Source of the DNA: Chloroflexi bacterium ADurb.Bin180
GTDB lineage: Bacteria; Chloroflexota; Anaerolineae; UBA2200
Assembly: GCA_002070215.1 (NCBI GenBank)
Contig: MWCV01000009.1
Span: 21,778-85,777, forward strand
Direction: 5' to 3'
DNA length: 64,000 nt
Shown: positions 1,194-31,809 of the stretch, piece after piece
Position numbering within the stretch: the first letter of the stretch is position 1
Layout of the letters: each line of letters starts with the position of its first letter
The notes under the pieces: generated by a model
What the model saw: only the letters and a program-made list of their open reading frames with translations
Databases searched by the model: none
Told to the model about the DNA's origin: nothing
Position numbers and translations under genes: made by a program

Positions 1194-1279
1194 TGGTCAC
1201 TCCTTACGTTGGCTGACCCTCTTCCAGGGCACGGGCCACTATCGCCTCACTGCAGACCAAGCGCGGCAACTCGTCGTGC

Positions 1280-4906: not shown

Positions 4907-4946
4907 CTTCCTCCCTCTCTCCTCATCGCGGCACCGCTAGTTACTG

Positions 4947-7865: not shown

Positions 7866-8323
7866 CGCACTGCCTCCATCAGGATGCGGAACGCGCGCAG
7901 CGCGCGTGTGTTATCGACCTGACCCAGCAGCCCTAGCCACCAGGCTGCCTGGTCGCCCGGGGTGTGGCGGATGTGCTTGGCCGCCAGCAGCAAGCGCTCG
8001 CCATCGCGCAGGCCAGCGGCGAGCAGCCCGTAGCAGGCCACCCGTGCCCCCCAGTCGGCATCCAACGGGTGGAAGGCCCCCCGCGAAAGCACGTCCTCGC
8101 TCCTCTGGCCAGCCTCAGCTTCGTTTCGTCCGGCCAGCACGGCCTGGCGCAACATCATCGCCGCCGCCCCAAAGCACAAGGGGCTCAGCGCGGCCACACG
8201 TCGCAGTCGGTCTCGGCCGGCGTTGTTGGCCTGGCGGCGGTAGATCACCGCTGCCGTGCCACCCTTGCGGTCAACAACGCGCAGGGCAAAAGGCGCCTGC
8301 CTGGTTGGGCTAGCTGGCACCAC
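7862..8323 (-). CDS. small hypothetical protein (153 aa) coupled between the ATPase and methylase genes
   Basis: The ORF overlaps the methylase start by 4 nt (ATGA) and the ATPase gene's 3' end by 14 nt, which is a translational-coupling geometry. It may correspond to the small conserved ORF that usually sits between DUF499 and DUF1156 genes, but this was not verifiable here. In high-GC DNA a spurious ORF remains possible. Confidence 0.45.
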   Translation of the reverse strand: MVPASPTRQAPFALRVVDRKGGTAAVIYRRQANNAGRDRLRRVAALSPLCFGAAAMMLRQAVLAGRNEAEAGQRSEDVLSRGAFHPLDADWGARVACYGLLAAGLRDGERLLLAAKHIRHTPGDQAAWWLGLLGQVDNTRALRAFRILMEAVR

Positions 8324-11300
8324 TGGTCTCCTCCTCGCCGAACTCGGCCTCTACCGACACCGTGCCAGCGGCCTTGACTTTCGCGTTGCGCACCGGTTCC
8401 TCGCCCAGGGGCCTGGCCGGCGCGGCCAAGTCGAGCGCCAACGACGCGCTGAACTGCACCGTGGCGGCATTGCAGGCCCGCTGCATCTCCCTGGCTCGCT
8501 CGATGGGCTTGAGCGGAGAGCTGTGCTTGACGTCGTTGACGGCGAAAAAGAGCTGGCCTCCGCCCGACAACTCTCCCGAGACATTGACGCTCAGCCATAG
8601 GGCCCGCGCCCCAAACGGCTGCGCGATGTCGATGAGGTCGCCGGCGCGGTCCAAAGAGTTGGTCGACAGGGTCAGCCGTAGCAGCGGCCGCCGTGCCGCG
8701 TACTTGACCGCCTCGTCCCACTCCTTAGTGCTGACCGTCTTGGCCTCGCCGCTCGGATGCCAGGCGCGGTACTTGTCGTCAACCACCACCATCAACTGGC
8801 CGTCTACCTCTTGCCCGTTCAACTGGCCGGCGTCAATGGCGTCGCGCACCTTTTGCTCGCTGGTGAACTTGTCGGTGGCTGCCTGATGGATAGTGAGCAG
8901 CTCGCCTGATGGTGCGGCCGCCACCTGCTGCCAGGCCGAGGCGCAGGGCGCGCTGGACGGTGCCAGCAGTACGTCGCTGCTTAGACTGAACGCCGGACAC
9001 TGGACACCGGCCTGCAGCGAGCGCTGCTCGGGCGGTCCCGTATAGCAGCCCTGCCGGGCATAGACAGACCCGTCGGGCAACCGCAGCAAGAGCCGGCCTT
9101 CTTCAATGGCTTTGCGGATGGCCTTGCGCACCGGTTCCTCGTCGCGCATCAGGCGCAATCGAGGACTGGCCAGGGCGCGTTCGTGCACCGCGCTGGCCAG
9201 TACGGCGCCGTCGTGCTCCAGCGAAGGTGTGGCCCCCTTGACCAGCTCGTCTAGCAACAGGTCCACGTCCAAGGCATCGCCGGCCTCATAGATCAAGTGC
9301 TTGTCGTCCAGCATGTCCTTCAGTTTCGTCTGACCATCGACGTCCCTGAGCGGCCCCACATTGGAGACCAGATACTCCTCAGTCAGGGTGACCGATGGCC
9401 GGCCCTGGAAGACCACGCGGTTGAAGGCGCGCAAAGTCTGGCGGCGCGCCGTGAGCTGCAGGTCCGGCAGCAGTGCCTTGACCTCGTCGAGCAACGGGGT
9501 GGTGCGGGTCCGGCCGGTGCAGCGCTCCTGCTCCTGGCGCTGGATCTCTTGCGCCACAGTGAGCCGGCGCGTGGCCTGGGCCGCAACTTCGAACTGTGCC
9601 GGTGTAGCCGCGATGCCCAGGATCGCGTTGCGGAAGCGGCGCGGGAACCGGTTGCCCGCATCGGCCTCCTCGGTATAGTCGCATATCTCCTGGGCGAGCG
9701 CCTCGGATTCAGTCAGCACCAGCTTGAGCTGGGCACTATCGGCTACGGCGCTGGGACCGTTGGGGTAAGCCACCAGAGTAAAGACAGTACCGCGAAAGTA
9801 GTTGTGGGCCATCGTGCGCACCGCCTGCCGGGCGTCTTCGCTGCTGACAGTGCCGCTGCGCTCCTCGATGATCTTGTTGATGTTGGGCTCATAGCGGAAC
9901 TGGAAGCGAGTGCGGCCCTCATCGTGGTAGATGTGCCAGCAGTGTTGGAGCAGCCGGTCCACGGCCTCGCCTGGCTCCGAGCCGGTCTCGTTCGGGCGGA
10001 GCACAGCCAGGGTGAGGTCGGCCTTGCTCATGGTGGCCCTTTCGTTCAGCGGCAGGCTTTCGAGCAGCAGGGCGGTCGCCACACGGCGATGGACGTCCGA
10101 TCCCTGCACCTCATCGAGCTGTCGTGCGTGACGCAGCACGTCGGCATTGACGGACGGCTTGAACGAGTCGCGGTGCAGCCGGTCGAGCAGGTCGGCCTGG
10201 ATGCGGCTACTGCCCCAGTCGAGGTCGCCGGCCGAGATGAGGAACAGGTCGCGCTCTTGCTCCCACACATCGCGGACGATGCGGGCAAACAGGCGCAGCG
10301 TGCCGCGGCTCTTGTGGAAATCCTGCAGTGCGGCCAGGCGATCCTGTGCCGTCTCTAGCAGGCGGGGATGGAAGGGATAGGTGCGGGAAATGACCTTGGC
10401 ATAGTCAACGGCGGCTCCACCGGGCAGTGCCTCGGGCAGCTCAGCCTTGACCCGCTCGTAGGCACGGTAATACTCGCTGGAGGCAGTCTCCGCTGCGCCT
10501 CGCTCTATATGTTCAAAGAGGCGGCGCACAATGACTTCCGCCGCCTCCTTGCCGACGGGGTCAAAGCCGCTCGCCCTGCGACCGATGATGCCGTCCAAGT
10601 CGCTTGCTGCTGCGCTTAGCCTGGTGGCTTCGATCAGCTCGTGCGCCTGCTTGGCGTACACGGGCTGACCGGCCGGGTCCGTGAGCACCAGCACCGCCTG
10701 GCGTCGTGCCCCTACCTCGGCCATCAGCGTAGAAACGAACGAGAGCACGGCATTCTTCTCCTGTTCGTTCAAGATAGCCATATACATCACCAGCTCATCG
10801 AGGAGGATGAGCACCGGGCCGTCGGGTAGCATCTCACGCACCTTGCTGGCTGGGGGCACGTCGTCTGGCGAGTCCATCGCTTCGATCGCCCGGTACGCCG
10901 GCTCTCCGCCCAGTTGATAGGCCACCTCGCCCCACAGGCTGTGGACCTTGATAGCTCCATGCTCCGCAACCAGGGATTTGCCAAAGGCCCGCGCATCGAG
11001 CCCGGCTACGGCAACCCTACGTGGCCGGCCGGCGGCGGGCAGGAGTTGCGTTCCCAGCGTGGGCCTGGCGATGTTGTGCGCCAGGTGCCACAGCGCGATG
11101 AGGGTGTGGGTCTTGCCGCCGCCAAACCCAGTGCTCAGGCGGAGCGGAAAACCGGCCTCGTTGGGATTGGCCAGACGGTCGAAAACCGTGGTGACGACCT
11201 TCTTGAGTGTCGCGGTCGGGTAGGTGTTGGCGAAGAACCGCTCGGGATCCTGGTACACACTAGGGGCTACCCCGCCGACGACTTGGCCGAAATCGGCCGC

Positions 11301-11372
11301 AAAAATGGCGTCCTCGAGGTCGCCTCTGAGCACCTCGGGGCGTGGAACACAGGTTTCTCGTACCGACTTCAT
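8310..11372 (-). CDS. DUF499-type P-loop ATPase (BrxC/PglY-like), first gene of the defence operon
   Basis: 1020 aa. Walker A is 'LRLSTGFGGGKTHTLIALWHL' and Walker B is 'PVLILLDELVMYM'. An AAGGAGGG SD precedes the ATG at 11372. Confidence 0.8.
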   Translation of the reverse strand: MKSVRETCVPRPEVLRGDLEDAIFAADFGQVVGGVAPSVYQDPERFFANTYPTATLKKVVTTVFDRLANPNEAGFPLRLSTGFGGGKTHTLIALWHLAHNIARPTLGTQLLPAAGRPRRVAVAGLDARAFGKSLVAEHGAIKVHSLWGEVAYQLGGEPAYRAIEAMDSPDDVPPASKVREMLPDGPVLILLDELVMYMAILNEQEKNAVLSFVSTLMAEVGARRQAVLVLTDPAGQPVYAKQAHELIEATRLSAAASDLDGIIGRRASGFDPVGKEAAEVIVRRLFEHIERGAAETASSEYYRAYERVKAELPEALPGGAAVDYAKVISRTYPFHPRLLETAQDRLAALQDFHKSRGTLRLFARIVRDVWEQERDLFLISAGDLDWGSSRIQADLLDRLHRDSFKPSVNADVLRHARQLDEVQGSDVHRRVATALLLESLPLNERATMSKADLTLAVLRPNETGSEPGEAVDRLLQHCWHIYHDEGRTRFQFRYEPNINKIIEERSGTVSSEDARQAVRTMAHNYFRGTVFTLVAYPNGPSAVADSAQLKLVLTESEALAQEICDYTEEADAGNRFPRRFRNAILGIAATPAQFEVAAQATRRLTVAQEIQRQEQERCTGRTRTTPLLDEVKALLPDLQLTARRQTLRAFNRVVFQGRPSVTLTEEYLVSNVGPLRDVDGQTKLKDMLDDKHLIYEAGDALDVDLLLDELVKGATPSLEHDGAVLASAVHERALASPRLRLMRDEEPVRKAIRKAIEEGRLLLRLPDGSVYARQGCYTGPPEQRSLQAGVQCPAFSLSSDVLLAPSSAPCASAWQQVAAAPSGELLTIHQAATDKFTSEQKVRDAIDAGQLNGQEVDGQLMVVVDDKYRAWHPSGEAKTVSTKEWDEAVKYAARRPLLRLTLSTNSLDRAGDLIDIAQPFGARALWLSVNVSGELSGGGQLFFAVNDVKHSSPLKPIERAREMQRACNAATVQFSASLALDLAAPARPLGEEPVRNAKVKAAGTVSVEAEFGEEETSGAS

Positions 11373-11762: not shown

Positions 11763-11811
11763 TCGCGCTATTCCGTCGGCGGAGCGTCGGCCTCCAGCCG
11801 CTCCAGCGTCT
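11763..11811. repeat. 49-bp direct repeat, copy 1 (3' tail of the DUF3427 remnant); copy 2 is at 18863..18911
   Basis: 'tcgcgctattccgtcggcggAgcgtcGgcctccagccgctccagc' at 11763-11811 matches 18863-18911 with 2 mismatches. Both copies encode the C-terminal '...LERLEADAPPTE*' of a minus-strand ORF. Confidence 0.8.
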
Positions 11812-12105
11812 GGCGGGCGATGTGCCAGGCCCCGCTGCGCCAGCGCAAGCACAACCTGTCGGCCGACCCGTGACGGCACAGAGAGTCCCGGTGCATTACC
11901 CCACCTCGGTGATCCACTCGCGGCACTTGCGGTCGGCCCACTCCTGACCAAAGGTGACCAAAAAGGCGAAATCTCCGTCGCGCTCCGGCACCTGGACAAT
12001 CCCATGCTGACCCCACGTGCCGAGGTGAGGCCTGAAGCGACTACCAGGCGCCCGGATGTCGTGCACTTTTTGTCGGGTGTAGTCAGCGTATAGCTTCAGT
12101 TGCAC
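11768..12105 (-). pseudogene. frameshifted remnant of a second DUF3427 gene
   Basis: Two overlapping frames (69-aa and 82-aa ORFs) together encode '...YTRQKVHDIRAPGSRFRPHLGTWGQHGIVQVPERDGDFAFLVTFGQEWADRKCREWITE...WHIARQTLERLEA'. This is clearly homologous to the C-terminus of the 60..1193 protein. The upstream part of the gene is absent. Confidence 0.65.
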
Positions 12106-12138: not shown

Positions 12139-13242
12139 CTATGACTCGCCGTGGGGTTTGAGTTCAGCTGCGAACTTGTCCAACTCATTGAGCATCAGCT
12201 CAAATGCGTTCACCATCGCCTCCAGATTAGCCTCGTCGACCGTAGCGCGGAGATAGTAGTTGCCGCCCTCTTTGAAGAGGCCGGTAGCGAGGATCTTCCG
12301 GCGCAGAGCGTCAGCAAAGGTCGGCTCGCGGATTGATCCAGCGAAATAGAATTCGAACCTACGCGGCGCCCAGCAGTAGGCAAACGTCGTCACGCCTGTG
12401 GGGAGGTCGGCACGCAAAGAGAGGCCCACCCGACCCCAATAGACAATGCAGCGTCCCGCTGCGGCTTGGTCGAGGGCGTGGGTAAAGAACTGCTTTGCGC
12501 CCGGGGCGCATTTGGCGAGGAACTCCTCTTGCGTGATCGGCCGAGTGGGCTGGGGTCGTCTCGCAGCCTCTGTCAGGCCGATAACACGGGGTGCTATGGC
12601 AGGGGGGTGGTCACCCTTCGCACTCTGGTACTGCTTCAGCTCGATGGCCAGCACCCGTACGTTCTCCATCTCCTCGTTCAAGAACTCCACCAAGCGGCGC
12701 AGCTCACTTGGCGTGCTATCCGTCACGAATATCAGGCGGATGCGCCGGCCCGCCAGGTTGCCTTCGACGACGCTCCAATATGCATCCTGGTCTTTATCTG
12801 CACCGAGGAGCTTGCTAACCTGGTCCTCCAGCGTTGCGCCCGCCTGCTCCGCCGTTTTCTCGGCCTGTGCCTTGATCTGGTCCACGCTCCAGTACTGAAC
12901 GCCGTTGGCCGCATAGTCGAGCATCTGCACCACGACCTCGCGACGAGTCCTTGTATCGGTTGCCCTCTTGCACTCCACAAAGGTGGGGATGCCGAACTGG
13001 TCAAGGAACAAGTGGTCGAGGCTCCACCTCCCCGCACCATCGGCGACGTCGGGGACGGGCATCTCGCGTGTGACCAGCATCCAGCGGCAGGGGTCGTCGG
13101 GTTCGATCTGGTCGCCTGGCAGCAGGTCTGGGTACTTGGCAAGCAGGTCCTGAAGCGCGTCCTCGCTCACATATTCACTCTCCTCCAGCGGAACCAGCGT
13201 TCCCTTCTCCTTGCCGATCAAGAAGATCTTGGATTTGAACAT
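12139..13242 (-). CDS. RecB-family-like PD-(D/E)xK nuclease-domain protein
   Basis: 'DHLFLDQFGIPTFVECKR...VVVQMLDYA' supplies the D...ExK...QxxxY motifs of RecB/Cas4-type nuclease cores. The preferred start is the ATG at 13242 (MFKSKIFLIG...), preceded by a GAGGGAGG SD. The ORF track extends it to 13275. Confidence 0.6.
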   Translation of the reverse strand: MFKSKIFLIGKEKGTLVPLEESEYVSEDALQDLLAKYPDLLPGDQIEPDDPCRWMLVTREMPVPDVADGAGRWSLDHLFLDQFGIPTFVECKRATDTRTRREVVVQMLDYAANGVQYWSVDQIKAQAEKTAEQAGATLEDQVSKLLGADKDQDAYWSVVEGNLAGRRIRLIFVTDSTPSELRRLVEFLNEEMENVRVLAIELKQYQSAKGDHPPAIAPRVIGLTEAARRPQPTRPITQEEFLAKCAPGAKQFFTHALDQAAAGRCIVYWGRVGLSLRADLPTGVTTFAYCWAPRRFEFYFAGSIREPTFADALRRKILATGLFKEGGNYYLRATVDEANLEAMVNAFELMLNELDKFAAELKPHGES

Positions 13243-13332
13243 CGCCCGTTCATCCTCCCTCAGCATTGTAAACATGGACGCTATCGTACGGTCGGCGGCT
13301 ACGGCACGAGAGCTAGTATGCTGTCGCCACGT

Positions 13333-13884
13333 TCATCGCCGAGCCTGGCCCGTCGGAAGGCACCAGCCGCAGTCGGCAAAGGGCCACCCCTTGCCTGCTG
13401 CAAAGGCACAGGCCTCCTCATACGTCGCGAACCCTCTGTAACCGCCTTCACCGTACTTGTGCTCGCCGCCATGCTGCCTGATGTACTTGCAGCCCGCGAG
13501 GTGAATCCTCGACCGGGAGTTGGCTCGGTTCCAGTACACGACGTAGCGTGCGTTGTCCAGGTCAGATGGCGCTGGCGAAGCGCGGGACCTGCCCCTGATG
13601 GAGGTGTTAGACTCCTCAGAGGCCTCACCGAGAATGCCAGTCGCCCCTACGGGCACGGGCGCAACCATGCTGTCCTCTGGCGCCGATGGCCGTGGCTGGC
13701 CCGGCCCCACGGGGATCTGGCCGACAGAGCCAGGTGCCTGCTCGGCAAGGACGGATGCATCGCTGTTCTTGATGAGGTTCGCCCGCCCTGTGCGCACCAT
13801 CCTTCGCCTTATGAAGTACCACGATGCGCCGGCGGCGAGCACGACCGCAGCTATCACCACCACCCGGTTCGGGGTCACCGTCAA
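13333..13884 (-). CDS. small membrane-anchored hypothetical protein with a Cys-rich C-terminus
   Basis: 183 aa. It has an N-terminal hydrophobic helix 'VVVIAAVVLAAGASWYFI', then a Pro/Ala/Ser-rich linker. The C-terminal ~70 aa carry 4 Cys ('HLAGCKY...EEACAF...FADCGWC'). It uses a TTG start with a poor SD, so the start is uncertain. Confidence 0.4.
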   Translation of the reverse strand: MTVTPNRVVVIAAVVLAAGASWYFIRRRMVRTGRANLIKNSDASVLAEQAPGSVGQIPVGPGQPRPSAPEDSMVAPVPVGATGILGEASEESNTSIRGRSRASPAPSDLDNARYVVYWNRANSRSRIHLAGCKYIRQHGGEHKYGEGGYRGFATYEEACAFAAGKGWPFADCGWCLPTGQARR

Positions 13885-13964
13885 TCTCCGTTCATGTCGC
13901 TTAGCCCTTCCGTGGCCGTCCGCCTTCTGGCGCCAAGAGCGCCATCGGCCTCGGAGACTACCCC

Positions 13965-16900
13965 TTAGCCATTCTGAATGAGCTCAATGAGCCGCTCGAT
14001 TTCGGCGCAGTCGATGCCTCCCCGCTCATCATCCTGGCTGGTTAGCAAAGTGCCATTGGGCCCTCCGCCCTGCGCGGCCGGAAGGATGCCCAGCGAGGCA
14101 TACCATTGCAGCTTGCGCTCCCACTTGCGCCGATAAGTAGGCTCTCGCAGCTTGCCCAGATGCTCCCAGTAGAACACCGCACCCGTCTCGTCATCGGCGA
14201 TGGTAAAGTCCGGGTAGCGCGGCGCGCCGCTCTTGCCGAGCAAGGGCTGCTCGTAGCGATACTCAATGTTGCGCGCATGAAGCATGTTGGCAATAATGAC
14301 CTCGGACTTGCTGCGGACCGGTTCACCGCGGAGGGTGCTATGGATGAGCTCCTGCTCGAGGAAGCGCTCCGTTGGTCCCTGCGCCTTGCCTGTCGCTTGC
14401 TCCCTGGATGGCAGGCGCACTAGATTGGGGGCGTGTAGGAGATTGGTCAGCCGCGCCGCGGCGTCGGAGTGATAGTCGTCGGAGAAGGCGCGCAACTCGT
14501 GAAAGTCGCCCTGGTGGAGAATGACCAGGCGGTCGTGCTGGCGGGTCAATGCGGTGTAGAGCAGCTCGCGCGACAACAGCCGACAAGGATTGGGTAGGAC
14601 GACTATGGTCAGTCCGAACTCGGACCCCTGCGCTTTGTGAATGGTGAGGGCGTAGGCGAGCTCCAACGGCGGATCGCCCTCTTCGCCGAAATCCTTGCCA
14701 CCAAAGCCGTAGGAGAACCCGAGCTGCGAGGCGAACTCTACCTGCAGTTTCCAGGGCGGGTCCCTGAATGGCCAATTCCTGCCTTTGAACTGGCCAACCA
14801 CAATCCCCACTTCGCCGTTGGCCACGTAGGCCAAGGCGTCCTGCTTTGGGTAGACGTCACGGTGGCGGTGGTTGACCAGGTTGATCACCTTGTCCCCGTA
14901 CAAGATGCCCTGTGGACCGATTGGCTTGGGAATGCGGCGCTGGGCGTTGAGAAGGTGCGCATCTCTTGCGGTCTGTCCGCGAAACCGTGTCTGGATGGTG
15001 CGGTTCAGCGCGTCCACACCGTGGGGAAGATTGCGCACCGGCGACAAGATCTGCCAGGCCTCGGCCCTCGTGGCGGCCCCTTCGCGACTGCCGGTAGTGG
15101 GCCAGAAGTAGTTGCGGCCTGCGTAGGGTGCCCCTCCGAGCGTTTGCTCGAAGGCGGCCGCGTCTGTCGCGTCCTGGAGTCGCAACTCCTCAACCAGCAC
15201 CTGCAGCAGCTTCTCCTGTAGCTCGTCCGAGTTGTCCCAGCGCACGAGCCGCAGCCGCGGCGAGAGGTCAGCGTCGGTCACCTGAGACCAGACCTCGTCA
15301 TCGCCAGGCTCCAAAGGCCGCCCGCTGAACCATTTGGCTAGCTCGAGGTCCAGGAACCGGTCGGTTTCCGCGGTTCCGGTAGCCTGCTGGCGGCGGACTA
15401 CCGTTAGCTCAGCTAGCCCAGGCACCACGAGGGGGAACAGTGCGTGGGCGTTCTCTGGCGTGAGGGCCCGCACGATGTCCAAGAATGGGCGGCCAGCGCC
15501 AATGGGCGGCAACTGCCGAGGATCGCCAACCAGCACCAGACGATCAACGCGGTCGAGCGCGTCCAGCACGGCCGCCAGCATGGCTTCGGTGAGCATGGAG
15601 CACTCGTCGATGATGACCGTGCGAGCGATATCGACCTTGGGAGCGGTGGACAATCGGTAAGTTCCGGTTGGTCCGTAGTAGCGATCCTTATCGAGGAGGA
15701 ACTGGGCGATGGTCTGCGCTCCAGGGATGTTGATCTTGACCCTCGCCTTGCCGGTGGGGGCCAGCACCAGCACCCCTCCGGCCTGGACCTCCGGCGCCTT
15801 GCACAGAACGCGTACCACGGTGGTCTTGCCTGTGCCGGCTGCGCCTGCAAGGACGCTCAGGCGCGAGGCGAACAGCTCCTGCAGTGCAGCCGTCTTCTCC
15901 TGGCGCGCAGACTCTTCAGTCTCGTCGCCGACGGGCCCCGTTAGCTCTCGGTCTAGCCTCTCGCGCCAGTCAATCTGGGCTTCGTGTCTCCTGCCCCTGA
16001 CACGCCTCTGCACCGCATTGCGAATGACCTCGCCGAACTCGCGCTGCTCTTTGAGTTGGTAGGCTGACGTGCCGTCGGCCAGTCGGACAATGGTGACGGA
16101 GGGTGCCAGATCCGTCTCGAGCACGTTCATCATGTCTTCATCGAGTGGCAGCTCTGGCTGCACCTGCTGGGCGCGAACGCGCCTCACGACTTGCGAGCGA
16201 GTTTGCAGGGTGTGACCCTCCAAGGCGGCGAGCTCTAGCTCTTGAACGATGAAAGCGCGCACTCGTCGTGCGTCAGTTGGATCGTCCACGCGCGACGGCG
16301 CCGGCAGGGCGTACTTCTCGCGCAGACTTGGGTCCGGAAAGACACCCCTGTCCACAGTACCCAGGGCAATCGCCGCCGGGGCCACGCGGTCACGCTCGTA
16401 GAGCTCGTATGGGTTCTTGAGCAGGTCGGAGTCATTGCAGTCGATTCGCAGCTCCTGGCGCGAGCCATCTTCGTGGACATAATAGCGGGTGGCCTGTTCT
16501 GGGAGCAGCTCAAAGCGACTCAGCAGTTGCAGCAGCGCGCGGCGTTCAGCGGGCAGGGCGATCCACTTCCTGCTGGTGGTGGCAGTGACGTGTTTGCGGA
16601 GAGCCTCCTGGAACGTTCGCGGTTCACGCAGCAACTTGTCTACCACCGGCCAAGGATCCCCGCCGTGCGCGGCCATTATCCTCTCCAATTCATAGGCCAG
16701 CAGAGTGCCCTTCTCAATGCCAAATGCAGTGAGGGCGGACCCGAGGCCGGGACAGGGTCCGCGCATCCGCCACAGCTCGCTCAATCGCTTGTCGATCCAG
16801 TCCCGTGCCTGGTCCCAATTGCCAGGCACGATGCTGGCGATGTTCTGCAGAGCTTTGTCGCAGGCCAGGAGCGCGGCGATGGCTCCGTCGTTGGTCACGT

Positions 16901-17750
16901 GCTCTGAGGTAAAGCTGAAGGACCAGAATTGGTCATCCGGAACAAAGGCCACATAGGGAGTTGGATCCTCCTCCGGGTGCGATCCGAGATAGGCGAGCAC
17001 CTCGTGGTATGGCAAGAGGAACCCTTCAGTGCCGGCAGGGCGGATCGAATGCTGCACGGCTCGGTCCCAGATCATCGATTGCAGAGCACCAGGCTGCTGG
17101 TAGCAGTACTCTACGGCGTTGGCGACGGCAGTCACACGCCCCACGCCCACCAGCACACGGCGAGTGTCCTCCACGAGAGGAGTACGCTTGGCATAGAAGA
17201 AGCAGAGCGACTGGTTCGGCTGGATCGCGCTGAAGAAGGTATCGAGCATCAGCAGTTGGTTGTGCTTGCTCTGCAGCCACGCAGTGGTGAAACCCATCAA
17301 CTCGGTGGCCTTCTGCTCTAGCTCTGGTGCAAAACCTAGCTCCAGTTCGGCTGTACGAGCTGGTGCGTTCTCTTTGAGCATCCAGTTGAAGGGGATACAG
17401 GCTGCTGAGTAGGCTGGGTGGCGGTAGGGGGTGGGTCCAAAGTGGGCATGAGCCTGGCTGCGTTCAACATAGGGGTGATTGAGTGTTCGCGTACTTTCCT
17501 GTGGGCACATAAAGTTGCCCCGTTCGCTGAGACAAGCAGGAAGCTGGTTAGGTGGGATCTCGGTCCAGCGCCTGCCTGCAAGCGCGCACTCCGCATCGTC
17601 GTCGCGCGTGTCACGAATGCGCCCCAGGATCAGGCAGGATAGGTTATCCTTTGGCTTCTGGCAGACCTTGCCGGTCCAGTCGGTGTCGTGCCAGGGCACC
17701 CGAATGGAGAGGTGCCGCAGGGGAAGCTGTCTCGCTCCGTCGGAAAGCAT
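13965..17750 (-). CDS. RecD/TraA-like SF1 helicase with an uncharacterised N-terminal domain and a C-terminal Vsr/DUF559-like PD-(D/E)xK endonuclease domain
   Basis: 1261 aa. Walker A is 'LAGAAGTGKTT', motif II is 'VIIDECSMLTE' and the RecD-type motif VI is 'ALTIHKAQGSEFG'. The C-terminal nuclease-like block is 'SKSEVIIANMLHARNIEYRYEQPL...YPDFTIADDETGAVFYWEHLG'. A GGGAGG SD lies 8 nt upstream of the ATG at 17750. Confidence 0.85.
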   Translation of the reverse strand: MLSDGARQLPLRHLSIRVPWHDTDWTGKVCQKPKDNLSCLILGRIRDTRDDDAECALAGRRWTEIPPNQLPACLSERGNFMCPQESTRTLNHPYVERSQAHAHFGPTPYRHPAYSAACIPFNWMLKENAPARTAELELGFAPELEQKATELMGFTTAWLQSKHNQLLMLDTFFSAIQPNQSLCFFYAKRTPLVEDTRRVLVGVGRVTAVANAVEYCYQQPGALQSMIWDRAVQHSIRPAGTEGFLLPYHEVLAYLGSHPEEDPTPYVAFVPDDQFWSFSFTSEHVTNDGAIAALLACDKALQNIASIVPGNWDQARDWIDKRLSELWRMRGPCPGLGSALTAFGIEKGTLLAYELERIMAAHGGDPWPVVDKLLREPRTFQEALRKHVTATTSRKWIALPAERRALLQLLSRFELLPEQATRYYVHEDGSRQELRIDCNDSDLLKNPYELYERDRVAPAAIALGTVDRGVFPDPSLREKYALPAPSRVDDPTDARRVRAFIVQELELAALEGHTLQTRSQVVRRVRAQQVQPELPLDEDMMNVLETDLAPSVTIVRLADGTSAYQLKEQREFGEVIRNAVQRRVRGRRHEAQIDWRERLDRELTGPVGDETEESARQEKTAALQELFASRLSVLAGAAGTGKTTVVRVLCKAPEVQAGGVLVLAPTGKARVKINIPGAQTIAQFLLDKDRYYGPTGTYRLSTAPKVDIARTVIIDECSMLTEAMLAAVLDALDRVDRLVLVGDPRQLPPIGAGRPFLDIVRALTPENAHALFPLVVPGLAELTVVRRQQATGTAETDRFLDLELAKWFSGRPLEPGDDEVWSQVTDADLSPRLRLVRWDNSDELQEKLLQVLVEELRLQDATDAAAFEQTLGGAPYAGRNYFWPTTGSREGAATRAEAWQILSPVRNLPHGVDALNRTIQTRFRGQTARDAHLLNAQRRIPKPIGPQGILYGDKVINLVNHRHRDVYPKQDALAYVANGEVGIVVGQFKGRNWPFRDPPWKLQVEFASQLGFSYGFGGKDFGEEGDPPLELAYALTIHKAQGSEFGLTIVVLPNPCRLLSRELLYTALTRQHDRLVILHQGDFHELRAFSDDYHSDAAARLTNLLHAPNLVRLPSREQATGKAQGPTERFLEQELIHSTLRGEPVRSKSEVIIANMLHARNIEYRYEQPLLGKSGAPRYPDFTIADDETGAVFYWEHLGKLREPTYRRKWERKLQWYASLGILPAAQGGGPNGTLLTSQDDERGGIDCAEIERLIELIQNG

Positions 17751-17799: not shown

Positions 17800-18171
17800 C
17801 TACCCTAGGCCTCGTGCCGTTGATGCTTTCTCTGCGGCAAAGCTTGCACGGGTTCCTGGTGTTCCGGCTGTGTCCCGTAATACCACGCGATCATCGTTGA
17901 GCTCTTGCCAGATGAGCTCCTTGGCCGACTCGAGGCCATGGCGAGACATCCCTTGAAGCAGGTCCAGTACCCTCTGTTGTGCGTCTGTGGACACGGAGAC
18001 CTCCTGGTGGGTGTCGACCAAGCAACGGTGGCGCGGCCGCAGCGCGGGCGACGGTTTATGGGTTACAGCCGCGCGGCGTGGGGCACTGCGAGACGGCTGG
18101 GTTTCTGCGACTAGGCCGTCTAGCGAGGGGCCAACACGGCTCACGGGGGCATTATAGCCGTACCGTGGCAA
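17800..18171 (-). CDS. hypothetical small ORF upstream of the helicase gene
   Basis: 123-aa ORF. The C-terminal half, 'QQRVLDLLQGMSRHGLESAKELIWQELNDDRVVLRDTAGTP', looks protein-like while the N-terminal half is Arg/Pro-rich. There is no clear SD, so the call is weak. Confidence 0.2.
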   Translation of the reverse strand: MPRYGYNAPVSRVGPSLDGLVAETQPSRSAPRRAAVTHKPSPALRPRHRCLVDTHQEVSVSTDAQQRVLDLLQGMSRHGLESAKELIWQELNDDRVVLRDTAGTPGTRASFAAEKASTARGLG

Positions 18172-18208: not shown

Positions 18209-18514
18209 CTACCCCCCCGCCACCCACGTTCCCTCCGCGGAGACCGACGTCAGACACTCGTAAGGCGGGTAGGGGAAGCTGATGGTAAGTTTGACTCCGC
18301 GAATGCTGTACGTGCCATGTGCCTCGGCGGCCGAATCAAACGTGCCGCTGAAGGCGAACATGGTGTCGTCGTAGAGGAACTGACCGTCGGTGATGGCCCG
18401 GGGCCCGGCGTTGCTCATCCCCGGCTCGCCGCGGACATTGCAGCCCGGCGCGTCACAGTTGATGGTGATCCAGAAATCCCTGCACTCGGAGCCGTCCGGC
18501 AAGACGTGGAACAT
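18209..18514 (-). CDS. hypothetical protein (~101 aa)
   Basis: From the internal Met, 'MFHVLPDGSECRDFWITINCDAPGCNVRGEPGMSNAG...TISFPYPPYECLTSVSAEGTWVAGG' has a non-degenerate composition. The upstream part of the 165-aa ORF is Arg/Pro junk. The SD is poor. Confidence 0.3.
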   Translation of the reverse strand: MFHVLPDGSECRDFWITINCDAPGCNVRGEPGMSNAGPRAITDGQFLYDDTMFAFSGTFDSAAEAHGTYSIRGVKLTISFPYPPYECLTSVSAEGTWVAGG

Positions 18515-18610
18515 CACCGGCCTGTTCGCGTCGGCGGTGCCGGGCCACAGCACGGGCGGGGTGCGGAAGCGAGCCACGAGGGGCACCAGGACTCGCGCCG
18601 CCCGTACGGG

Positions 18611-18807
18611 AGGCGCCCGGGCGGTTCCCGAACTGCCGCTACGCGAGGGGGCGGTTGTCGAGCAGCCCGTACGGGAAGGGGGAAGCAGGTCGCGAGGTGC
18701 CCCCACGGCCGGCCAGAGGGCGGTTCCCGAACCGCCCCTACGGGAGGCGGAAGCGCGGTTGTCGAACCGCTCCGACGACAGACGCGAGGGCGGCCCACCA
18801 GGCGCTC
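18611..18807. repeat. cluster of GC-rich palindromic hairpin repeats (GGCGGTT-N4-AACCGCC family), including a ~103-bp imperfect tandem duplication
   Basis: Repeated elements are 'gggcggttcccgaacTgccGctacgCgaggg' (~18613) and 'ggcggttcccgaacCgccCctacgGgaggcgg' (~18718), plus 'gcggttgtcgagcagccc' (~18647) and 'gcggttgtcgaaccgc' (~18755). Each is an inverted repeat of GGCGGTT/AACCGCC around a 4-nt loop. Confidence 0.55.
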
Positions 18808-18846: not shown

Positions 18847-18868
18847 GATTCCCTGTCTGCAGGTCGCG

Positions 18869-21800
18869 CTATTCCGTCGGCGGGGCGTCTGCCTCCAGCC
18901 GCTCCAGCAGCTCCTTCGGCGGCACTACCGGCGTGGCCGTGGGCATCGGCCGGTCGTCCCTGGGCAGCGGGATCGGCTCGTCGCGCACGATCACCGGCGA
19001 CCCGCCGGGCAGCCAGTACTGGATGACCAGCCGCGGCCTCTTGCTGACCTGCTCGGCCTCGGCGCTGGCAAAGAAGAACGATGCCGTCGACGTTCCGCCG
19101 CGCAGCAGCACCCCCTCGGCCGGCATTCCGGCGTACCACTGCTTGACCAGGTTGGTCACATCCCAGCCGTACCAGCGGGTGGGCCCGGCGGTGGTCAGCC
19201 GGTCCTCCGGCGCCGGCCGGCGGTCGGTGCTCACATCGCCCAGGCCGCCAGCTCCCCAGGGGAAGCCAGTGCGGGCGTTGGTCCAGGTGGCCTCGGAGAT
19301 GGTCACCGTGCGGGTGATGGCGTACACGCCCAGCTCCATATCCGCTCCGCCCCAGCCGGCGGCATAGAGCTGCAGGCTGGCCTGGTGCACCGTGGCCCCG
19401 GCCGGCAGAGCCGGCAGGGTAAAGCGCAGGAGCGAGACGTTGGTCTGCTTGTAGCCGGCCTTGAGCAGCGGCGAGAGGGCATAGTTCGCCTGCGGGGCGT
19501 AGCGGTACAGGTAGGTGTCTTCGCTCTGGCCAGAGCTGCCCTGCTGGATGACCAGCGTGGTCAGCCCGGGCAGAGGCGTGGGCGTGGCCGTGGGCGTGGG
19601 CGTCGGTGTGGGCGGAGGCGGCGGCACCGGCGTGGGCGGGTTCGTCTGGCAGGCCCTGACGCAGGCCACGTCGCTCATCGGGATGGGGATCTCGATCTCG
19701 TCCGCGCCGAGCCAGGCATAGTTGGTCAGGCAGTGTCCGGCCGCCCAGCCATAGGTCTGGGCCCGGATCCACACGGCCAGGCTGTTGCCCGGCCCGAGTG
19801 AGCCGAGGTGCCAGACCACCTGGTTCACCCCGTCAAAGGTGCCGCCGGGCACATAGGTATAGGGGTAGCCGATGCCGGTCTGCACCGAGTAGGGCGCGAT
19901 GCCCGCCGGCAGCGTATCGGTCAGCACCACATTGTTGATCGCCGATGAGCTGGTGTTGGTCACAAAGATATAGTACCAGAAGGTCCACGTGGCGCAGACG
20001 TCGCCGTGCGGCCTCATCTTGAGCGGGTCGATCGGGCTGTCAAAGCCAAAGTCCAGTGTATAGTTGGTCGGCTGGTCCACGGTCAGGTCGGTGGTGAACT
20101 GGCCCGGCGTGGTCAGGTAGTATCCGCCAATCGGCTGCACGGTCACCGTGTAGGTGGTGCTGAGCAGCAGGTGGGGGAACAGGTACATCCCGTTGGTGCC
20201 GGTGGTCGTGGTCACCACCAGTCCGGAAGAGCTGGTGAGGGTCACCACAACGCCGGGCAGGCCGAGCTCGAGCGGATCCTGGATGCCGTCCGCGTTCGGG
20301 TCGTACCACACGCGGTCGCCGACCTCGCCCAGGCCGCGCACGCCATAGTCGTGGTCCTCGTTGGTCGGGTTGGCCGACGTGAGCAGCGACGAGAAGTGGC
20401 CCGGCGTGGTCAGCCAGGTGCCGGGCGGCAGGCTGGCCAACTGGAGGGTGGTGGTGTAGTAGGTGTCCAGCGCCAGGTTGGTAAAGGTGTACACGCCATT
20501 GGCGTCGGTGGTGGTGGTGTAGGTGTGGCCGAACTGGTCGACCATCGTGATGACCACGCCGGGCAGGCCTGGCTCGCCAGGTCCCTGCACGCCGTTGCCG
20601 TCATAGTCCAGCCAGACCGTGTCGCCAATCGCGCCCGGCGGGTAAAAGCCAAAGTCGATGGTCAGGTTGGTGTTGGCGTTGCCGTCTTCCGAGGTCGGCT
20701 CCCCGCCGATGGTGAGCGTGACCGGTCCGCTGGAGATGCCGTTCGCCGCCGGATTCGGATCGTCGATGCCGTTCTCGTCCACGTCCTGATCGAGGTCGGC
20801 ATCGGGCGAGCCGGCGCCGGTGGACGAGCGCAGTCCATAGAGCGGCGCGGTCGGGGTGGCCCAGTTGCTGGCGGCGATGTGCACCACATAGCTGCCCGGC
20901 GCCAGGCCGGTGAAGAGATAGTCACCGTTGGCGTCGGTGGTGGTATAGACGGGGTTGCCGCTGCCGTCGAGCACCAGCGAGCCGTCGGCGTGGCGCAGCT
21001 CGACGCGCACGTTCGGGATGCCCGCCTCGCCGCCGTCCTGGCGGCCGTTGTCGGTGGTGCCTACTCCGTCATCGCGCCAGACGCGGTTGCCCAGGGCCAG
21101 CAGCACATAGTCTTCTACTTCGCCGTTGGGCGCCTGGCCCGTGGGCTCGGTGGCCTGGCGCGGGCCAGAGGTGTAGCGGAAGCGGCTGTAGACCGTGGCC
21201 GTGACAAACGACGGCGTTGGGAAGGTCAGGGTGTTGACCCCCGCCGTCAGCGGCTGGTCGCTAAAGATCTTGTCTCCGGCATCAAAGATGCCGTTCCCGT
21301 TAAAGTCGATCCAGGCGTTGAGGTAGCCGGCCTGAGAGGCCACTACCTGGATGGTAGCCGTCGAGTTGGGCATGATCGGCGTGAGGAAGGTGATGCCGTC
21401 CTCGTCGTCGGGCACGCCGTTGAGGTCATCGCCGTTGGCGTTGCTGTTGGGCTGTCCGTCCGGCTCAAAGTCCACGCTGTTGCCCAGGTACAGGCCGGGC
21501 ACGATGGTGTGCCGCGGGCCGTTGCTGGCAAAGGTCGTGGGATACGGCCCGTCGGGCAGGTCGCCCCAGTCCGACTGGATGAGGCCGGCGTCCAGGGTGT
21601 CGTTCACCTCGGCCGGTCCCAGGGTCACGGTGCCGGTGTGGCCGGTGTAGACGTTGGCGTCGCTGTCCAGGGTATCGTCGAGACCCTGGTCCTGGCTGGT
21701 AAAGCCAAAGCCCACCGGCGGCTCAAAGCCCACGCTGTAGGTGCCTGCGGGCAGGCCGGGGAACTCGTACCAGCCGGGGTTGCCGCTCACCGGGTGGTTG

Positions 21801-24800
21801 TGGGTGGTGGTGGTGATGGGATTGCCGGACGCGTCGCGCACCGGGTTGCCGCTCGCGTTGAGCAGGCTCACCACGATGCCGTTCATGCCGTCGGCCGGCA
21901 GCTCGTTCTGGATGCCGTCGCCGTTGCGGTCGAACCAGACATAGTCGCCCAGGGAGGCCAGTGCATAGTCCTCGACCTCGCCGTTGGGCGCGAGGCCGGT
22001 GGGCAGGGTGGCCTGATTCTGTCCGGTGGTAAAGCGGAAGCGGCTGTACTGCACCCCGGTGGCGTTGGCCGGCACGACAAAGGTAATGGCGTTGGGCCCC
22101 GCCGCCAGCGGCGTATCGAGGGCGATCTGTTCGCCCGGGTCAAAGGTGCCGTTCCCGTTAAAGTCGATCCAGGCGTTGAGATAGCCCGCCGTGGAGGCAG
22201 TCACGGTGATGGTGGCGCTGCGGCCGGGCACGAGCGGCGTGGCAAAGATCACGCCGTCTTCGTCGTCGGGCACGCCGTTGATGTCGTCACCGGTGGCGGT
22301 GGCGTTGGGCTGGCCGTTGCCCTCGCCGTCGACCCCCGCGCCCAGGTACACACCGCTCACGATCTGGTGGTGCGGTCCATTGCTGGCCGCCAGGGTCGGG
22401 AAGGTCGGATCGGGCAGGTCGCCCCAGTCGTACTGCACCAGGCCGGCATCCACGCTCAGGTCGGCCGTGTGCGGTCCGATGGTGTAGACGCCGGTGAGTC
22501 CGGTGGTCGGATTGGCATCGCTGTCGGTGGCGTCAGAGCCGATGTTGGCGGCGGTAAAGCCCAGGCCCGCCGGCGCCACAAAGCCGATGCGATAGTCGCC
22601 CGCCGGCAGACCGGCGAACTGGTACCAGCCGGGGTTGCCGGTGGTGGGATGGTTCGTAGTGGTCGTAGTGATGGCGTGGCCCGCGGCATCGAGCACCGGG
22701 TTGCCGCTGGCGTCGAGCAGGCGCACCTGCACGCCGTTGAGGCCGTTCGTCGGGCCGTCGTCCTGCTGGCCGTTGCCGTTGGCATCGAGCCAGACATAGT
22801 CGCCGATGACGCCCAGCACATAGTCCTCCACCTCGCCGTTGGGCGCGCGGCCGGTAGGCGCGGTGGCCTGGCCCTGGCCGGAGGTAAAGCGGAAGCGGGC
22901 ATAGTCGTAAGGCGTGTCGACCGCCGTGGCCGGCACGTTGACGACGAGCTGGTTCGGGCCGGCGGCGAGCAGCAGGTCGGAGGCGATCTTTTCGCCCGCC
23001 TCCAGAACGCCGTTGTTGTTCCAGTCGATCCAGGCGTTGAGGTAGCCAGCCTGCGAGGCGGTCACGGTGATGGTGGCCGGGCGACCGGCGACGAGCGGCG
23101 TATTAAAGACGACACAGTCTTCGTCATCGGGCACGCCGTTGATGTCATCGCCGGTGGCGGTGAGGTTGGGCTGGCCGTCGGGCTCGGCGTCGACGCTGCT
23201 GCCCAGGTACAGGCCGGTGATGATCTGGTGGTTGGCCCCGTTGTTGGCGGCCAGAGTCGGATAGGGTCCGTCGGGCAGGTCGCCCCAGTCGAACACGACC
23301 AGGCCGGCGTCGAGCGTCGGGTTGGTCTGGCCGGGCCCCAGGGTTACCGTCTGTGTGCGCCCGTTCGCGGGCACATAGTCGCTGTCGATGGTGTCGTCGC
23401 CGCCCACGTTGGGCGTGGTGAACTCGTATCCCGCCGGCGGGGCAAAGCTCACGCTGTAGGAGCCGGCCGGCAGGCCGGGGAACTCGTACCAGCCGGGGTT
23501 GCCGCTCACCGGGTGATTGTGGGTAGTGGTGGTGATGGCGTTGCCCAGGGCGTCGCGCACCGGGTTGCCGCTCGCGTCGAGCAGGCTCACCACAACGCCG
23601 TTCACGCCCGGCTCGCCGCTGGTCTGCAGTCCGTCGCCGTTGCCGTCGAGCCAGACATAGTCGCCCAGCGCGGCGAGGACGTAATCCTCCACCTCACCGT
23701 TGAGCGCGAGGCCGGTCGGCAGGGTAGCCTGGTTCTGTCCGGTGGTAAAGCGGAAGCGGCTGTACTCCACGCCGGTGGCGTTGGCCGGCACGGCAAAGGT
23801 GATGGCGTTGGGGCCCGCGGCCAGCGGCGTATCGAGGGCGATCTGCTCGCCCGGGTCAAAGGTGCCGTTCCCGTTAAAGTCGATCCAGGCGTTGAGATAG
23901 CCCGCCGTGGAGGCAGTCACGGTGATGGTGGCGCTGCGGCCGGGCACGAGCGGCGTGGCAAAGATCACGCCGTCTTCGTCGTCGGGCACGCCGTTGCTGT
24001 CGTCACCGGTGGCGGTGGCGTTGGGCTGGCCGTTGGCCTCGCTGTCCACCGAGGCGCCCAGGTAGACGCCGGGCTGGATGACGTGGCGTGGTCCGTTGCT
24101 GGCCGCCAGGGTCGGGAAGGTCGGATCGGGCAGGTCGCCCCAGTCGAGGCGGAGGATGCCCGCGTCCCAGGTCATATCGTTCTCGCCCAGGTCGAGGTGG
24201 GTGGTCGCTGTCTGGCCGGTGGCCGGGTTGGCGTCGCTGTCCAGCGCGTCGTTGGCGCCCTGGTCCGGCAGGGTAAAGCTGTAGCCAGGCGGCAGGGTAA
24301 AGACGACGTAATAGTCGCCGGGCGGCAGGTACTCAAAGAGGTACAGGCCGCTGCCATCGGTCACGTCGGTGGCCAGCGGCGTGCCTGTTCCGCTGTACAG
24401 GGTAACGGTGACGCCGGGCACTGGCGGCTCGCCGTTGTCCTGGATGCCGTTATAGTTCGAGTCGTACCACACGTAGTTGCCCAGCGATCCGGCCACCTGC
24501 AGGGGCACGTTGCTGTACTCAACATAGCGCGGGTTGTTGGGCGAGTTGCCGCCGTCGCGTTCACCCGGCACGGTCCCGGGCAGCGTGCTGGTCCAGGCCA
24601 TCACGCTGTTGGTCAGCACCGAGCCGGGAGCGATGCCCGCGTTCACCGTGGCGGTGAACTGGTAGCTGTAGCTGACGCCAGGGTCCATCTGGCTCACGAA
24701 CCAGGAAATCAGCGTCGGCCCACTGCCGACCACGCTCGCGGGAGCCGGCGTACCCGGCAGGACTCCGCCGTAGGTGAGGCCTGGCGGCAGCGTGTCGAGC

Positions 24801-31663: not shown

Positions 31664-31809
31664 GAGACCCCCTTCGCACAACGGTTGTGTTACTGCCAGA
31701 CATACTGTACTCCGTTTGTCCGTTTTTGCCAAACTGGCCATTTCGCGCATTGGGGCGATCGGGTTATAATCTCGCCCAGTCTATCGGTGAAGGGAGGTGC
31801 ATCGCGTCG

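Follow-up and report, generated by a model that had tools for sequence, protein, structure and literature searches.

A predicted PDC-S68 helicase-nuclease in a repeat-bounded block beside an Hma-type system of a Chloroflexi bacterium

The helicase-nuclease gene and its domains

We analysed a stretch of 64,000 nucleotides (nt) from contig MWCV01000009.1 of Chloroflexi bacterium ADurb.Bin180, which is called the window below. This report concerns a minus-strand open reading frame (ORF) at positions 13965–17750, which encodes a predicted helicase-nuclease of 1261 amino acids (aa). It is followed on the same strand by ORFs of 183 aa (13333–13884) and 378 aa (12139–13275), and all three are held by a 7.1-kb block lying between 45-nt direct repeats. 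A preliminary description, made from the letters of the DNA alone, had placed these three ORFs and their motifs at the same positions, and the ORF list confirmed them. It had also divided the large protein into an N-terminal region without recognisable motifs, a RecD-type superfamily 1 (SF1) helicase core and a C-terminal fold resembling restriction endonucleases. This three-part architecture was borne out by the searches described below.

The 1261-aa protein matched the PADLOC model PDLC05065, named PDC-S68, with E = 0 and 1568.9 bits. Residues 10–1258 were aligned with positions 4–1218 of the 1221-position profile (97% coverage), and the sister models PDLC05066 and PDLC05064 likewise matched the protein end to end. 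Judged by its sequence, the protein is a new PDC-S68 member from a Chloroflexi-like metagenomic lineage, and nothing sets it apart from the family. The earlier claim that its combination of domains matched nothing known could therefore not be upheld; the family is catalogued, though uncharacterised. PDC-S68 is one of 145 'phage defence candidates' (PDCs) predicted through guilt by embedding and called untested by their authors (Payne, Hughes, Fineran and Jackson 2024, 10.1101/2024.01.29.577857). The name 'PDC-S68' appeared in no paper or supplement text of the literature that we searched.

More than 1800 proteins matched the 1261-aa protein at E<=1e-10. Leaving the source lineage aside, the best 119 homologues have a length of ~1250 aa in most cases and are 51–64% identical to it; they are distributed across phyla and come from Anaerolineales, Deltaproteobacteria, Actinomycetota, Geobacter and others. 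About ten full-length homologues reside on predicted viral contigs of IMG/VR. When the N-terminal 600 residues were used alone, 1584 cluster representatives were recovered, and among the best 150 of these the long ones were nearly all ~1250 aa.

The motor occupies residues 611–1097 (14460–15920, minus strand) and was delimited by Pfam, a PDB profile and motifs. It carries GAAGTGKT at residues 636–643 (Walker A), IIDECSM at 713–719 (Walker B), VGDPRQLPPIGAG at 741–753 and HKAQGSEF at 1038–1045, as well as motif III and an SH3-like insert; the motor motifs are invariant among 26–61 homologues. Pfam assigned AAA_30 (1e-25), AAA_19 (1e-19) and UvrD_C_2 (4e-12) to this part. A profile built from 26 homologues retrieved Deinococcus radiodurans RecD2 (3e1s, 7e-32) and the RecD subunit of Escherichia coli RecBCD (2e-25) from the PDB. 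Another matched entry, 9kwf, belongs to an unrelated nanopore-helicase study, and CMoRE was also found to be unrelated. With Walker A and B, motif III, motifs V and VI and the 1A and 2A domains all present, the motor falls into the SF1B RecD family. Its 1A/2A motor domains with the full set of motifs, its SH3-like insert and a portion of its N-terminal neck are shared with RecD2 and RecD, and a 5'->3' polarity is therefore expected. Unlike RecD2 and RecD, the 1261-aa protein has an extra N-terminal region of ~490 residues and a fused C-terminal nuclease domain, and it lacks RecB and RecC partners. Its scores remained far below the NCBIfam equivalog cut-offs for these proteins (184 against 500 bits for TIGR01448; 130 against 310 bits for TIGR01447).

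The preliminary description had named assignment to a conjugative relaxase (TraA) as a result that would speak against its proposal. We observed no such assignment, and the relaxase reading was rejected. TraA_Ti scored 66 bits against a cut-off of 590, and the TraA/TraI models matched the motor alone, at about a tenth of their cut-offs. Residues 1–610 contain no relaxase Pfam domain, and the neighbours are defence genes. Genes of a type IV secretion system were not found near the helicase gene; the origin of transfer was not searched for.

The N-terminal region begins with '...SIRVPWHDTDWTGKVCQKPKDNLSC'. Structure prediction for this region, which the preliminary description had recommended, gave a confident model for residues 1–610, with a mean predicted local distance difference test (pLDDT) of 93.4 and a predicted template modelling score of 0.90 (AlphaFold2, 61 sequences). 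In this model an alpha/beta part (residues 1–300; 16851–17750, minus strand), which was also delimited by conservation, is followed by a mostly helical part with winged-helix-like elements (residues 301–610; 15921–16850, minus strand), which merges into a RecD2-like neck. The first 600 residues returned no Pfam match even at E<=10. For residues 1–300 in particular, we found no Pfam match at E<=10 with 20 diverse family members, no PDB sequence at E<=10 with the N-domain profile, no Foldseek match in the PDB at E<=1e-3 and no PHROG match. The helical half gave weak winged-helix matches in Foldseek (E 0.05–1) and one match to a RecD2-like helix-hairpin-helix (HhH) domain protein of a giant virus in BFVD (E 4e-4). 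As the alignment with the NCBIfam RecD2 model (TIGR01448) starts at residue 491, the truly unassigned part comprises residues ~1–490. In terms of the current libraries, what appears still new to science is this ~490-residue region, at least residues 1–300 of which match nothing in them.

The N-terminal region is well conserved. In 61 sequences with identities down to 28%, 18 of its positions are invariant, including R17, W20, D22, N36, H234 and D467, and H13, C30, C39, C73, E76, H92, Y94, K188, R198 and R237 are kept in at least 90% of them. From this pattern we infer a putative pocket and a possible metal site of the Cys3-His type, and we propose that residues 1–300 may form a sensor or regulatory domain.

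The C-terminal domain (residues 1098–1261 and the stop codon; 13965–14459, minus strand) was predicted with a pLDDT of 90.9 and was assigned a PD-(D/E)xK fold from AlphaFold2, Foldseek and invariant residues. Nearly all of the listed Foldseek matches in the PDB possess the restriction-endonuclease fold, among them Bax1, R2 RLE, Cdn1/Card1, DrdV, AbaSI, NucS and TnsA. The alpha-beta-beta-beta core of the PD-(D/E)xK superfamily is present, as are its conserved acidic residues on helix 1, strand 2 and strand 3. S1147-K-S-E1150, P1180-D-F and W1195-E-H1197 (the 'RYPDF...YWEHLG' element) are invariant in 61 homologues. On the basis of the model, E1150, D1181 and E1196, together with K1148 and H1197, are candidate catalytic residues, and we infer that the domain may be catalytically competent. 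Bax1, R2 RLE and Card1/Cdn1 are its best structural matches and have the E...PD...E core in common with it; the likeness is one of fold only (E 6e-3 to 0.2; 11–17% identity), and the canonical lysine of these enzymes is a leucine in the 1261-aa protein.

The preliminary description had called this domain Vsr/DUF559-like. The nuclease fold that this name implied was supported by Foldseek, but no support was found for Vsr (PF03852) or DUF559 (PF04480) in particular. In Pfam searches at E<=10 the C-terminal 171 aa gave a chance match to TPD alone, and the C-terminal profile run against all PDB sequences returned chance matches only, with no nuclease among them. The sole Vsr-like structure among the listed Foldseek matches was AbaSI, at rank 21.

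Defence context of PDC-S68 homologues

We examined 29 loci that encode full-length homologues outside the source lineage. These comprise 16 loci from species-representative genomes, 3 metagenome loci of the closest relatives and 10 IMG/VR contigs. Nitrospira, Planctomycetota, Hyphomicrobiales, Pseudomonas, Pedobacter, Amycolatopsis, Mycobacterium, Sinorhizobium, Gemmatimonadota and Lachnospira are represented among the 16 genome loci. All-against-all clustering of the neighbouring ORFs of these 16 revealed no shared family, and a family that seemed common to 6 of them was an artefact of chaining generic helicase domains from different defence proteins. The absence of a conserved neighbour at the 16 genome loci is the behaviour that defines the single-gene ('S') class to which PDC-S68 was allotted.

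Defence genes surround PDC-S68 at 11 of the 16 genome loci, at all three metagenome loci and in the window. At the other five genome loci, there was either no recognised defence neighbour among the scanned ORFs or the ORFs were unscanned. The identified neighbours are varied. They include a type IIG restriction-modification (RM) system with DRT1a (L001), a type I RM system (L004), Mokosh MkoA (L005), a type I RM system together with a Tiamat-like TmtA gene immediately downstream (L007), the same TmtA-like arrangement (L009 and L015), a GajB-like/NERD-UvrD helicase (L012), a type IIG RM system with HKD-Snf2 (L013), a type I methyltransferase homologue with a PtuA-like ATPase (L014) and a type IV restriction enzyme (L016). 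At L011 the homologue lies between DISARM DrmD and HKD-Snf2, and at L082–L084 it directly follows BREX PglZ and BrxA, with either overlapping start or a 32-nt gap. Positions inside or next to BREX, DISARM, type I RM or Hma systems, on which the PDC-S68 prediction was built, were thus observed at L081, L082–L084, L011, L004, L007, L014 and in the window. The 1261-aa protein accordingly resembles the rest of the PDC-S68 family in its full-length profile, in its single-gene behaviour and in its position beside or inside Hma, BREX, DISARM and RM loci, and the defence context asserted in the preliminary description stands.

Some of these arrangements deserve mention in their own right. At L082 (3240–6004) and L083 (3165–5968) the homologues stand right after PglZ and a BrxA-like gene; a methyltransferase gene is located upstream, and no BrxHII-type helicase separates it from PglZ. 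At these two loci the PDC-S68 helicase might take over the role of BrxHII, or might simply be embedded. The TmtA-like neighbours are giant proteins of the Sacsin/HATPase type fused to an SF1 or superfamily 2 (SF2) helicase, and are encoded on the same strand as the homologue (L007, 11738–18634; L009, 11731–16404; L015, 7793–13012). They occur in three distant lineages, namely Pedobacter, a deltaproteobacterium and Lachnospira, and PDC-S68 and a TmtA-like gene may form a recurrent two-gene arrangement in divergent subfamilies. A homologue of ADP-ribosylglycohydrolase is encoded just downstream of the PDC-S68 homologue at two unrelated loci, the metagenomic L083 (10793–11737) and the IMG/VR contig L093 (9786–10487).

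In the window, an Hma-type system (60–11372) is found immediately downstream of the block and on the same minus strand. It consists of a DUF499 ATPase (8310–11372), a DUF1156 methyltransferase (4947–7865) and a helicase with PLD and SNF2 domains (1280–4906). Between the ATPase and the methylase lies a 153-aa gene with a weak DUF7680 match (7862–8323), and an Mrr_N+DUF3427 protein (60–1193) trails the system. PADLOC recognised HmaC (7e-74), HmaB (2e-81), PLD_Helicase (2e-69) and HmaA (2e-50), and Pfam recognised DUF499, DUF1156, PLDc_2, SNF2, Mrr_N and DUF3427. The system is complete, and the Mrr_N+DUF3427 protein may be a restriction component. Hma systems are known to hold embedded defence genes often (10.1101/2024.01.29.577857).

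The closest relative of the 1261-aa protein, the helicase of locus L081 (63% identical), is encoded inside such a system. At L081 (1–8852) the PDC-S68 gene and a 248-aa gene are inserted between the DUF1156 methylase and the PLD-SNF2 helicase, which are 70% and 64% identical, respectively, to the window pair (1280–7865). In the window this pair is directly adjacent and the PDC-S68 gene lies upstream of the whole Hma-type operon. As the cassette occupies two different sites in one and the same host system, the comparison argues for PDC-S68 being an independently mobile single-gene unit.

Neighbouring genes and the repeat-bounded block

The preliminary description had joined the helicase to its two downstream neighbours, a membrane protein of 183 aa and a nuclease of 378 aa, as a candidate defence module. 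Direct reading of the 183-aa sequence showed a single hydrophobic segment near the N-terminus, a low-complexity linker and four C-terminal cysteines. The protein matched nothing in Pfam, PADLOC, NCBIfam or PHROGs, and a single homologue was found for it among 5.8 billion proteins, 99% identical and from Chloroflexi bacterium ADurb.Bin180 itself. On this evidence it is best regarded as a lineage-restricted ORFan and a co-resident gene.

The 378-aa protein contains an N-terminal PD-(D/E)xK nuclease domain, in which D92...E101-C-K103...Q117-x3-Y121 is invariant in 22 homologues. Met12 (position 13242) is probably its real start, because this is where every homologue starts, as does P0271, a database entry identical to it. 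The family is very widespread, with over 3400 homologues, ~375 aa long, retrieved from bacteria and archaea. A weak partial match to PADLOC PDC-S11 (E 1.8e-11; residues 25–218 on profile positions 12–172 of 358) indicates what is probably a related nuclease domain. We found no Pfam Cas4 or PDDEXK match and no Cas4-like cluster of four cysteines. The protein shares the D...ExK...QxxxY motif with nucleases of the RecB/Cas4/NucS type, and it differs from these and from PDC-S11 in its distinct, repeatable C-terminal domain. In 510-aa relatives (P0272, P0274 and P0289), this C-terminal domain of ~130 residues is tandemly duplicated. One source labels a member of the family 'DUF5655 domain-containing'. 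Profile-profile comparison showed the N-domain of the helicase, its C-terminal nuclease domain and the 378-aa family to be mutually unrelated, so the two nucleases are not paralogues.

The genes of the trio are separated by gaps of 57–90 nt and no strong terminator-like site lies between them; they are therefore probably co-transcribed in this genome, which would be a feature of this particular insertion and not of any conserved system. In tblastn searches with the 183-, 378-, 123-, 165- and 69-aa products of the block, relatives were found at 0 of the 29 loci. The trio was seen only on contigs of the same lineage that are 99–100% identical (L085–L088). In the three cases sampled, homologues of the 378-aa protein stand alone, surrounded by toxin-antitoxin pairs, by an Mrr gene or by the remains of a transposase, and no helicase is nearby. 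As co-conservation is lacking at the 29 loci, an outcome that the preliminary description itself had named as fatal to its module, the three genes are, as far as comparative data go, co-resident cargo of one insertion and not a module.

The block contains three further ORFs on the minus strand. The last called gene is a 69-aa ORF (11896–12105), which is called on the same-lineage contigs L085–L086 and has no match in Pfam or PHROGs. At the 5' end of the block lie hypothetical ORFs of 123 aa (17800–18171) and 165 aa (18209–18706), neither of which has family matches; a 125-aa gene is called inside the latter on L085.

The right copy of the 45-nt repeat (18864–18908) consists of the last 13 codons and the stop codon of a gene for a 4293-aa protein plus 5 nt. 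The left copy (11763–11807) is identical to it at 43 of 45 positions, and is read as a displaced duplicate of this terminal part of the giant gene; it delimits the block on the opposite side. A strong terminator-like hairpin follows each copy on the minus strand (18846–18817 on the right, 11747–11715 on the left). GC content (the fraction of guanine and cytosine) is 0.60–0.63 inside the block and 0.65–0.69 in the flanks. The repeat-bounded accessory block of the preliminary description was thus recovered. Direct repeats that duplicate the 3' end of the giant gene, each with its own terminator, are a plausible signature of an element that integrated there and carried a replacement end. The repeats, the lower GC content and the homologues on predicted viral contigs together are signs of foreign insertion.

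Pfam and library scans recognised no integrase or recombinase inside the block, and the window contains no tRNA or Rfam element usable as an integration site. The empty-site pattern, in which the left flank, one repeat and the right flank are joined, was not found in the JGI metagenome contigs, where the source lineage may be absent; we encountered this lineage only in ENA, Logan and NCBI data.

Several features at the edges of the block were also recorded. A cluster of hairpin repeats resembling repetitive extragenic palindromic (REP) elements occurs at 18580–18785, in the stretch that separates the terminator of the giant gene from the first block ORF. Their core, GGCGGTTCCCGAACYGCC, is partly palindromic and is found nowhere else in the window. 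A 42-aa ORF (11768–11896, minus strand), called on same-lineage contigs, runs into the left repeat. Its last 12 residues, LERLEADAPPTE, equal the end of the giant protein, and the ORF is probably a side effect of the 3'-end duplication and not a gene. The 4293-aa protein itself (18869–31750, minus strand), the 3' end of whose gene is the putative integration point of the block, looks secreted, has many tandem domain repeats ('GDYVWLD.NGDG.Q' and 'DWGDLPD...YPT' units) and is presumably a giant surface adhesin. Fairly near this defence island, the plus strand encodes a 2004-aa protein (33682–39696) whose sole match is an AAA_22 P-loop domain (residues 1321–1461) and which has no PADLOC match. 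This large uncharacterised nucleoside triphosphatase gene is followed by an overlapping 424-aa ORF, which has no matches.

A proposed single-chain defence protein and the alternatives

We favour the interpretation that the gene at 13965–17750 encodes an autonomous, single-polypeptide PDC-S68 helicase-nuclease, carried as mobile cargo in a defence island beside an Hma-type methylase system, and we give it a probability of about 0.6. This interpretation is supported by the intact RecD-type motor, the conserved PD-(D/E)xK fold, the absence of a partner, the defence-island or embedded context, the patchy spread and the signs of mobile DNA. According to it, the N-terminal domain would act as a sensor, an autoinhibitor or both, possibly with the Cys3-His metal site, and together with the winged-helix/HhH-like neck it would recognise either a phage trigger or a DNA feature peculiar to the invader. 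The motor, of RecD type, would then load on DNA and translocate in the 5'->3' direction, feeding the threaded strand to the C-terminal nuclease, so that phage or other foreign DNA would be degraded processively.

Several observations weigh against this interpretation. For the nuclease domain, the structural matches agree with one another but are statistically weak (probability up to 1.0, with the E-values given above), and because the canonical lysine position of the (D/E)xK motif is occupied by Leu1198, catalysis would need K1148 or H1197. We found no experimental test of PDC-S68 in the literature searched, and in a study that assayed eight further PADLOC candidates, of which seven were PDCs and one was an HEC, only four were protective (PMC12881386). 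The lack of a strong terminator-like site between the trio genes has also to be set on this side, as a lineage-specific functional link between them may exist. Finally, methylase-based systems are over-represented among the neighbours of PDC-S68, which an accessory role would fit too.

Such a role would make PDC-S68 an exchangeable accessory or effector of methylation-based systems (Hma, BREX, DISARM, type I and IIG RM), for instance their DNA-degrading arm or a back-up against phages that evade them. At about 10 of 20 loci a methyltransferase-based system is directly adjacent (window, L081, L082–L084, L011, L004, L007, L014, L001 and L013), and complementary action has been proposed for embedded genes such as BrxU (10.1101/2024.01.29.577857). 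However, five different kinds of partner system are involved, the gene is placed differently with respect to Hma in the window and at L081, and other loci have only non-methylase neighbours (Mokosh, Tiamat-like, DRT or Gabija-like), to which the five genome loci lacking a recognised defence neighbour among the scanned ORFs, or left unscanned, have to be added. RM-type systems are moreover the commonest residents of defence islands, and chance adjacency to them is expected. We consider an accessory role unlikely. The parallel with BrxU and GmrSD, which occur inside BREX, Hma and type I RM loci (10.1101/2024.01.29.577857), could also be taken to mean that the protein is a modification-dependent, type IV-like restriction enzyme. 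Its N-domain would read a modified base, and motor and nuclease would cut modified phage DNA and so complement the methylase neighbours, whose target is unmodified DNA. The conserved, pocket-like set of polar residues would suit a reader, and the strands at ~180–250 loosely recall PUA-like readers, which is an impression of ours only. Against this, the N-domain showed no likeness in Pfam, the PDB or Foldseek to SRA, EVE, YTH, ASCH or any other reader, and we allow this reading slender odds.

A function outside immunity would have the protein serve as a housekeeping or element-borne helicase-nuclease of repair or recombination, in the manner of AddAB, AdnAB or Dna2, or as a helicase that a mobile element uses in its replication or conjugation. 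RecD-family motors fused to or paired with PD-(D/E)xK nucleases also carry out end resection, as in RecBCD, AddAB and Dna2, and the IMG/VR homologues would agree with an element-borne enzyme. Yet the phyletic spread is patchy, with 50–60% identity between distant phyla, and the neighbours are variable and rich in defence genes instead of being conserved repair or replication genes. In addition, the RecD, RecD2 and TraA equivalog scores are far under their cut-offs, and neither a relaxase domain nor a type IV secretion system is present near the gene, which leaves a non-immune function rather improbable. As for the three-gene defence module, in which the helicase would work with the membrane protein of 183 aa and the RecB-like nuclease of 378 aa, its appeal lies in the close spacing of the genes on one strand with no strong terminator-like site between them, in their enclosure by one pair of repeats and in the invariant motifs of the 378-aa nuclease. 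These points are outweighed by the absence of partner relatives at every one of the 29 loci, the restriction of the trio to near-identical contigs, the near-orphan state of the 183-aa protein and the solitary homologues of the 378-aa protein; the helicase, besides, already carries a nuclease domain of its own. We hold the module to be very improbable indeed. Taken as a whole, the preliminary description was right about the architecture, the defence context and the block and was mistaken about the novelty of the combination, and its module and Vsr/DUF559 assignment were not supported.

Returning to the single-polypeptide interpretation, the nearest functional analogues would be Hhe, Nhi and Hna, attributed to Gao (2020), Bari (2022) and Sather (2023), respectively. 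These are reportedly validated single-chain helicase-nuclease defence proteins with an SF1 or SF2 motor and a nuclease, which act alone in defence islands. We take the 1261-aa protein to differ from them in motor subfamily (RecD-type, where Hhe is presumably Upf1-like/DUF4011), in domain order and in the N-terminal domain, and we make no claim of membership. Gabija, Hachiman, Shedu, Hhe, Nhi and Hna were not among the 14 PADLOC families matched by the helicase at E<=0.01, nor among the 2 families matched by the 378-aa protein at the same threshold, in a 2023 release whose coverage of all six was left unchecked.

More tentatively, and at somewhat less than even odds, we suggest that PDC-S68 is a genuine autonomous anti-phage enzyme in which the ~490-residue region would be an undescribed sensor fold, its Cys3-His site and polar pocket gating the motor and the nuclease. 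Its insertion into Hma, BREX, DISARM and RM loci would then provide a back-up against phages that escape these systems.

The locus carries a lesson for the reading of such blocks, as genes for a helicase, a nuclease and a small protein of the membrane stood adjacent in one block, and adjacency did not signal a module. The window and L081 together form a natural with-and-without pair, which bears on how defence genes embed in larger systems and move between them. If PDC-S68 is confirmed, one more single-chain helicase-nuclease would be added to the bacterial immune repertoire, and its N-terminal domain, absent from current libraries, could represent a novel means by which infection or foreign DNA is sensed.

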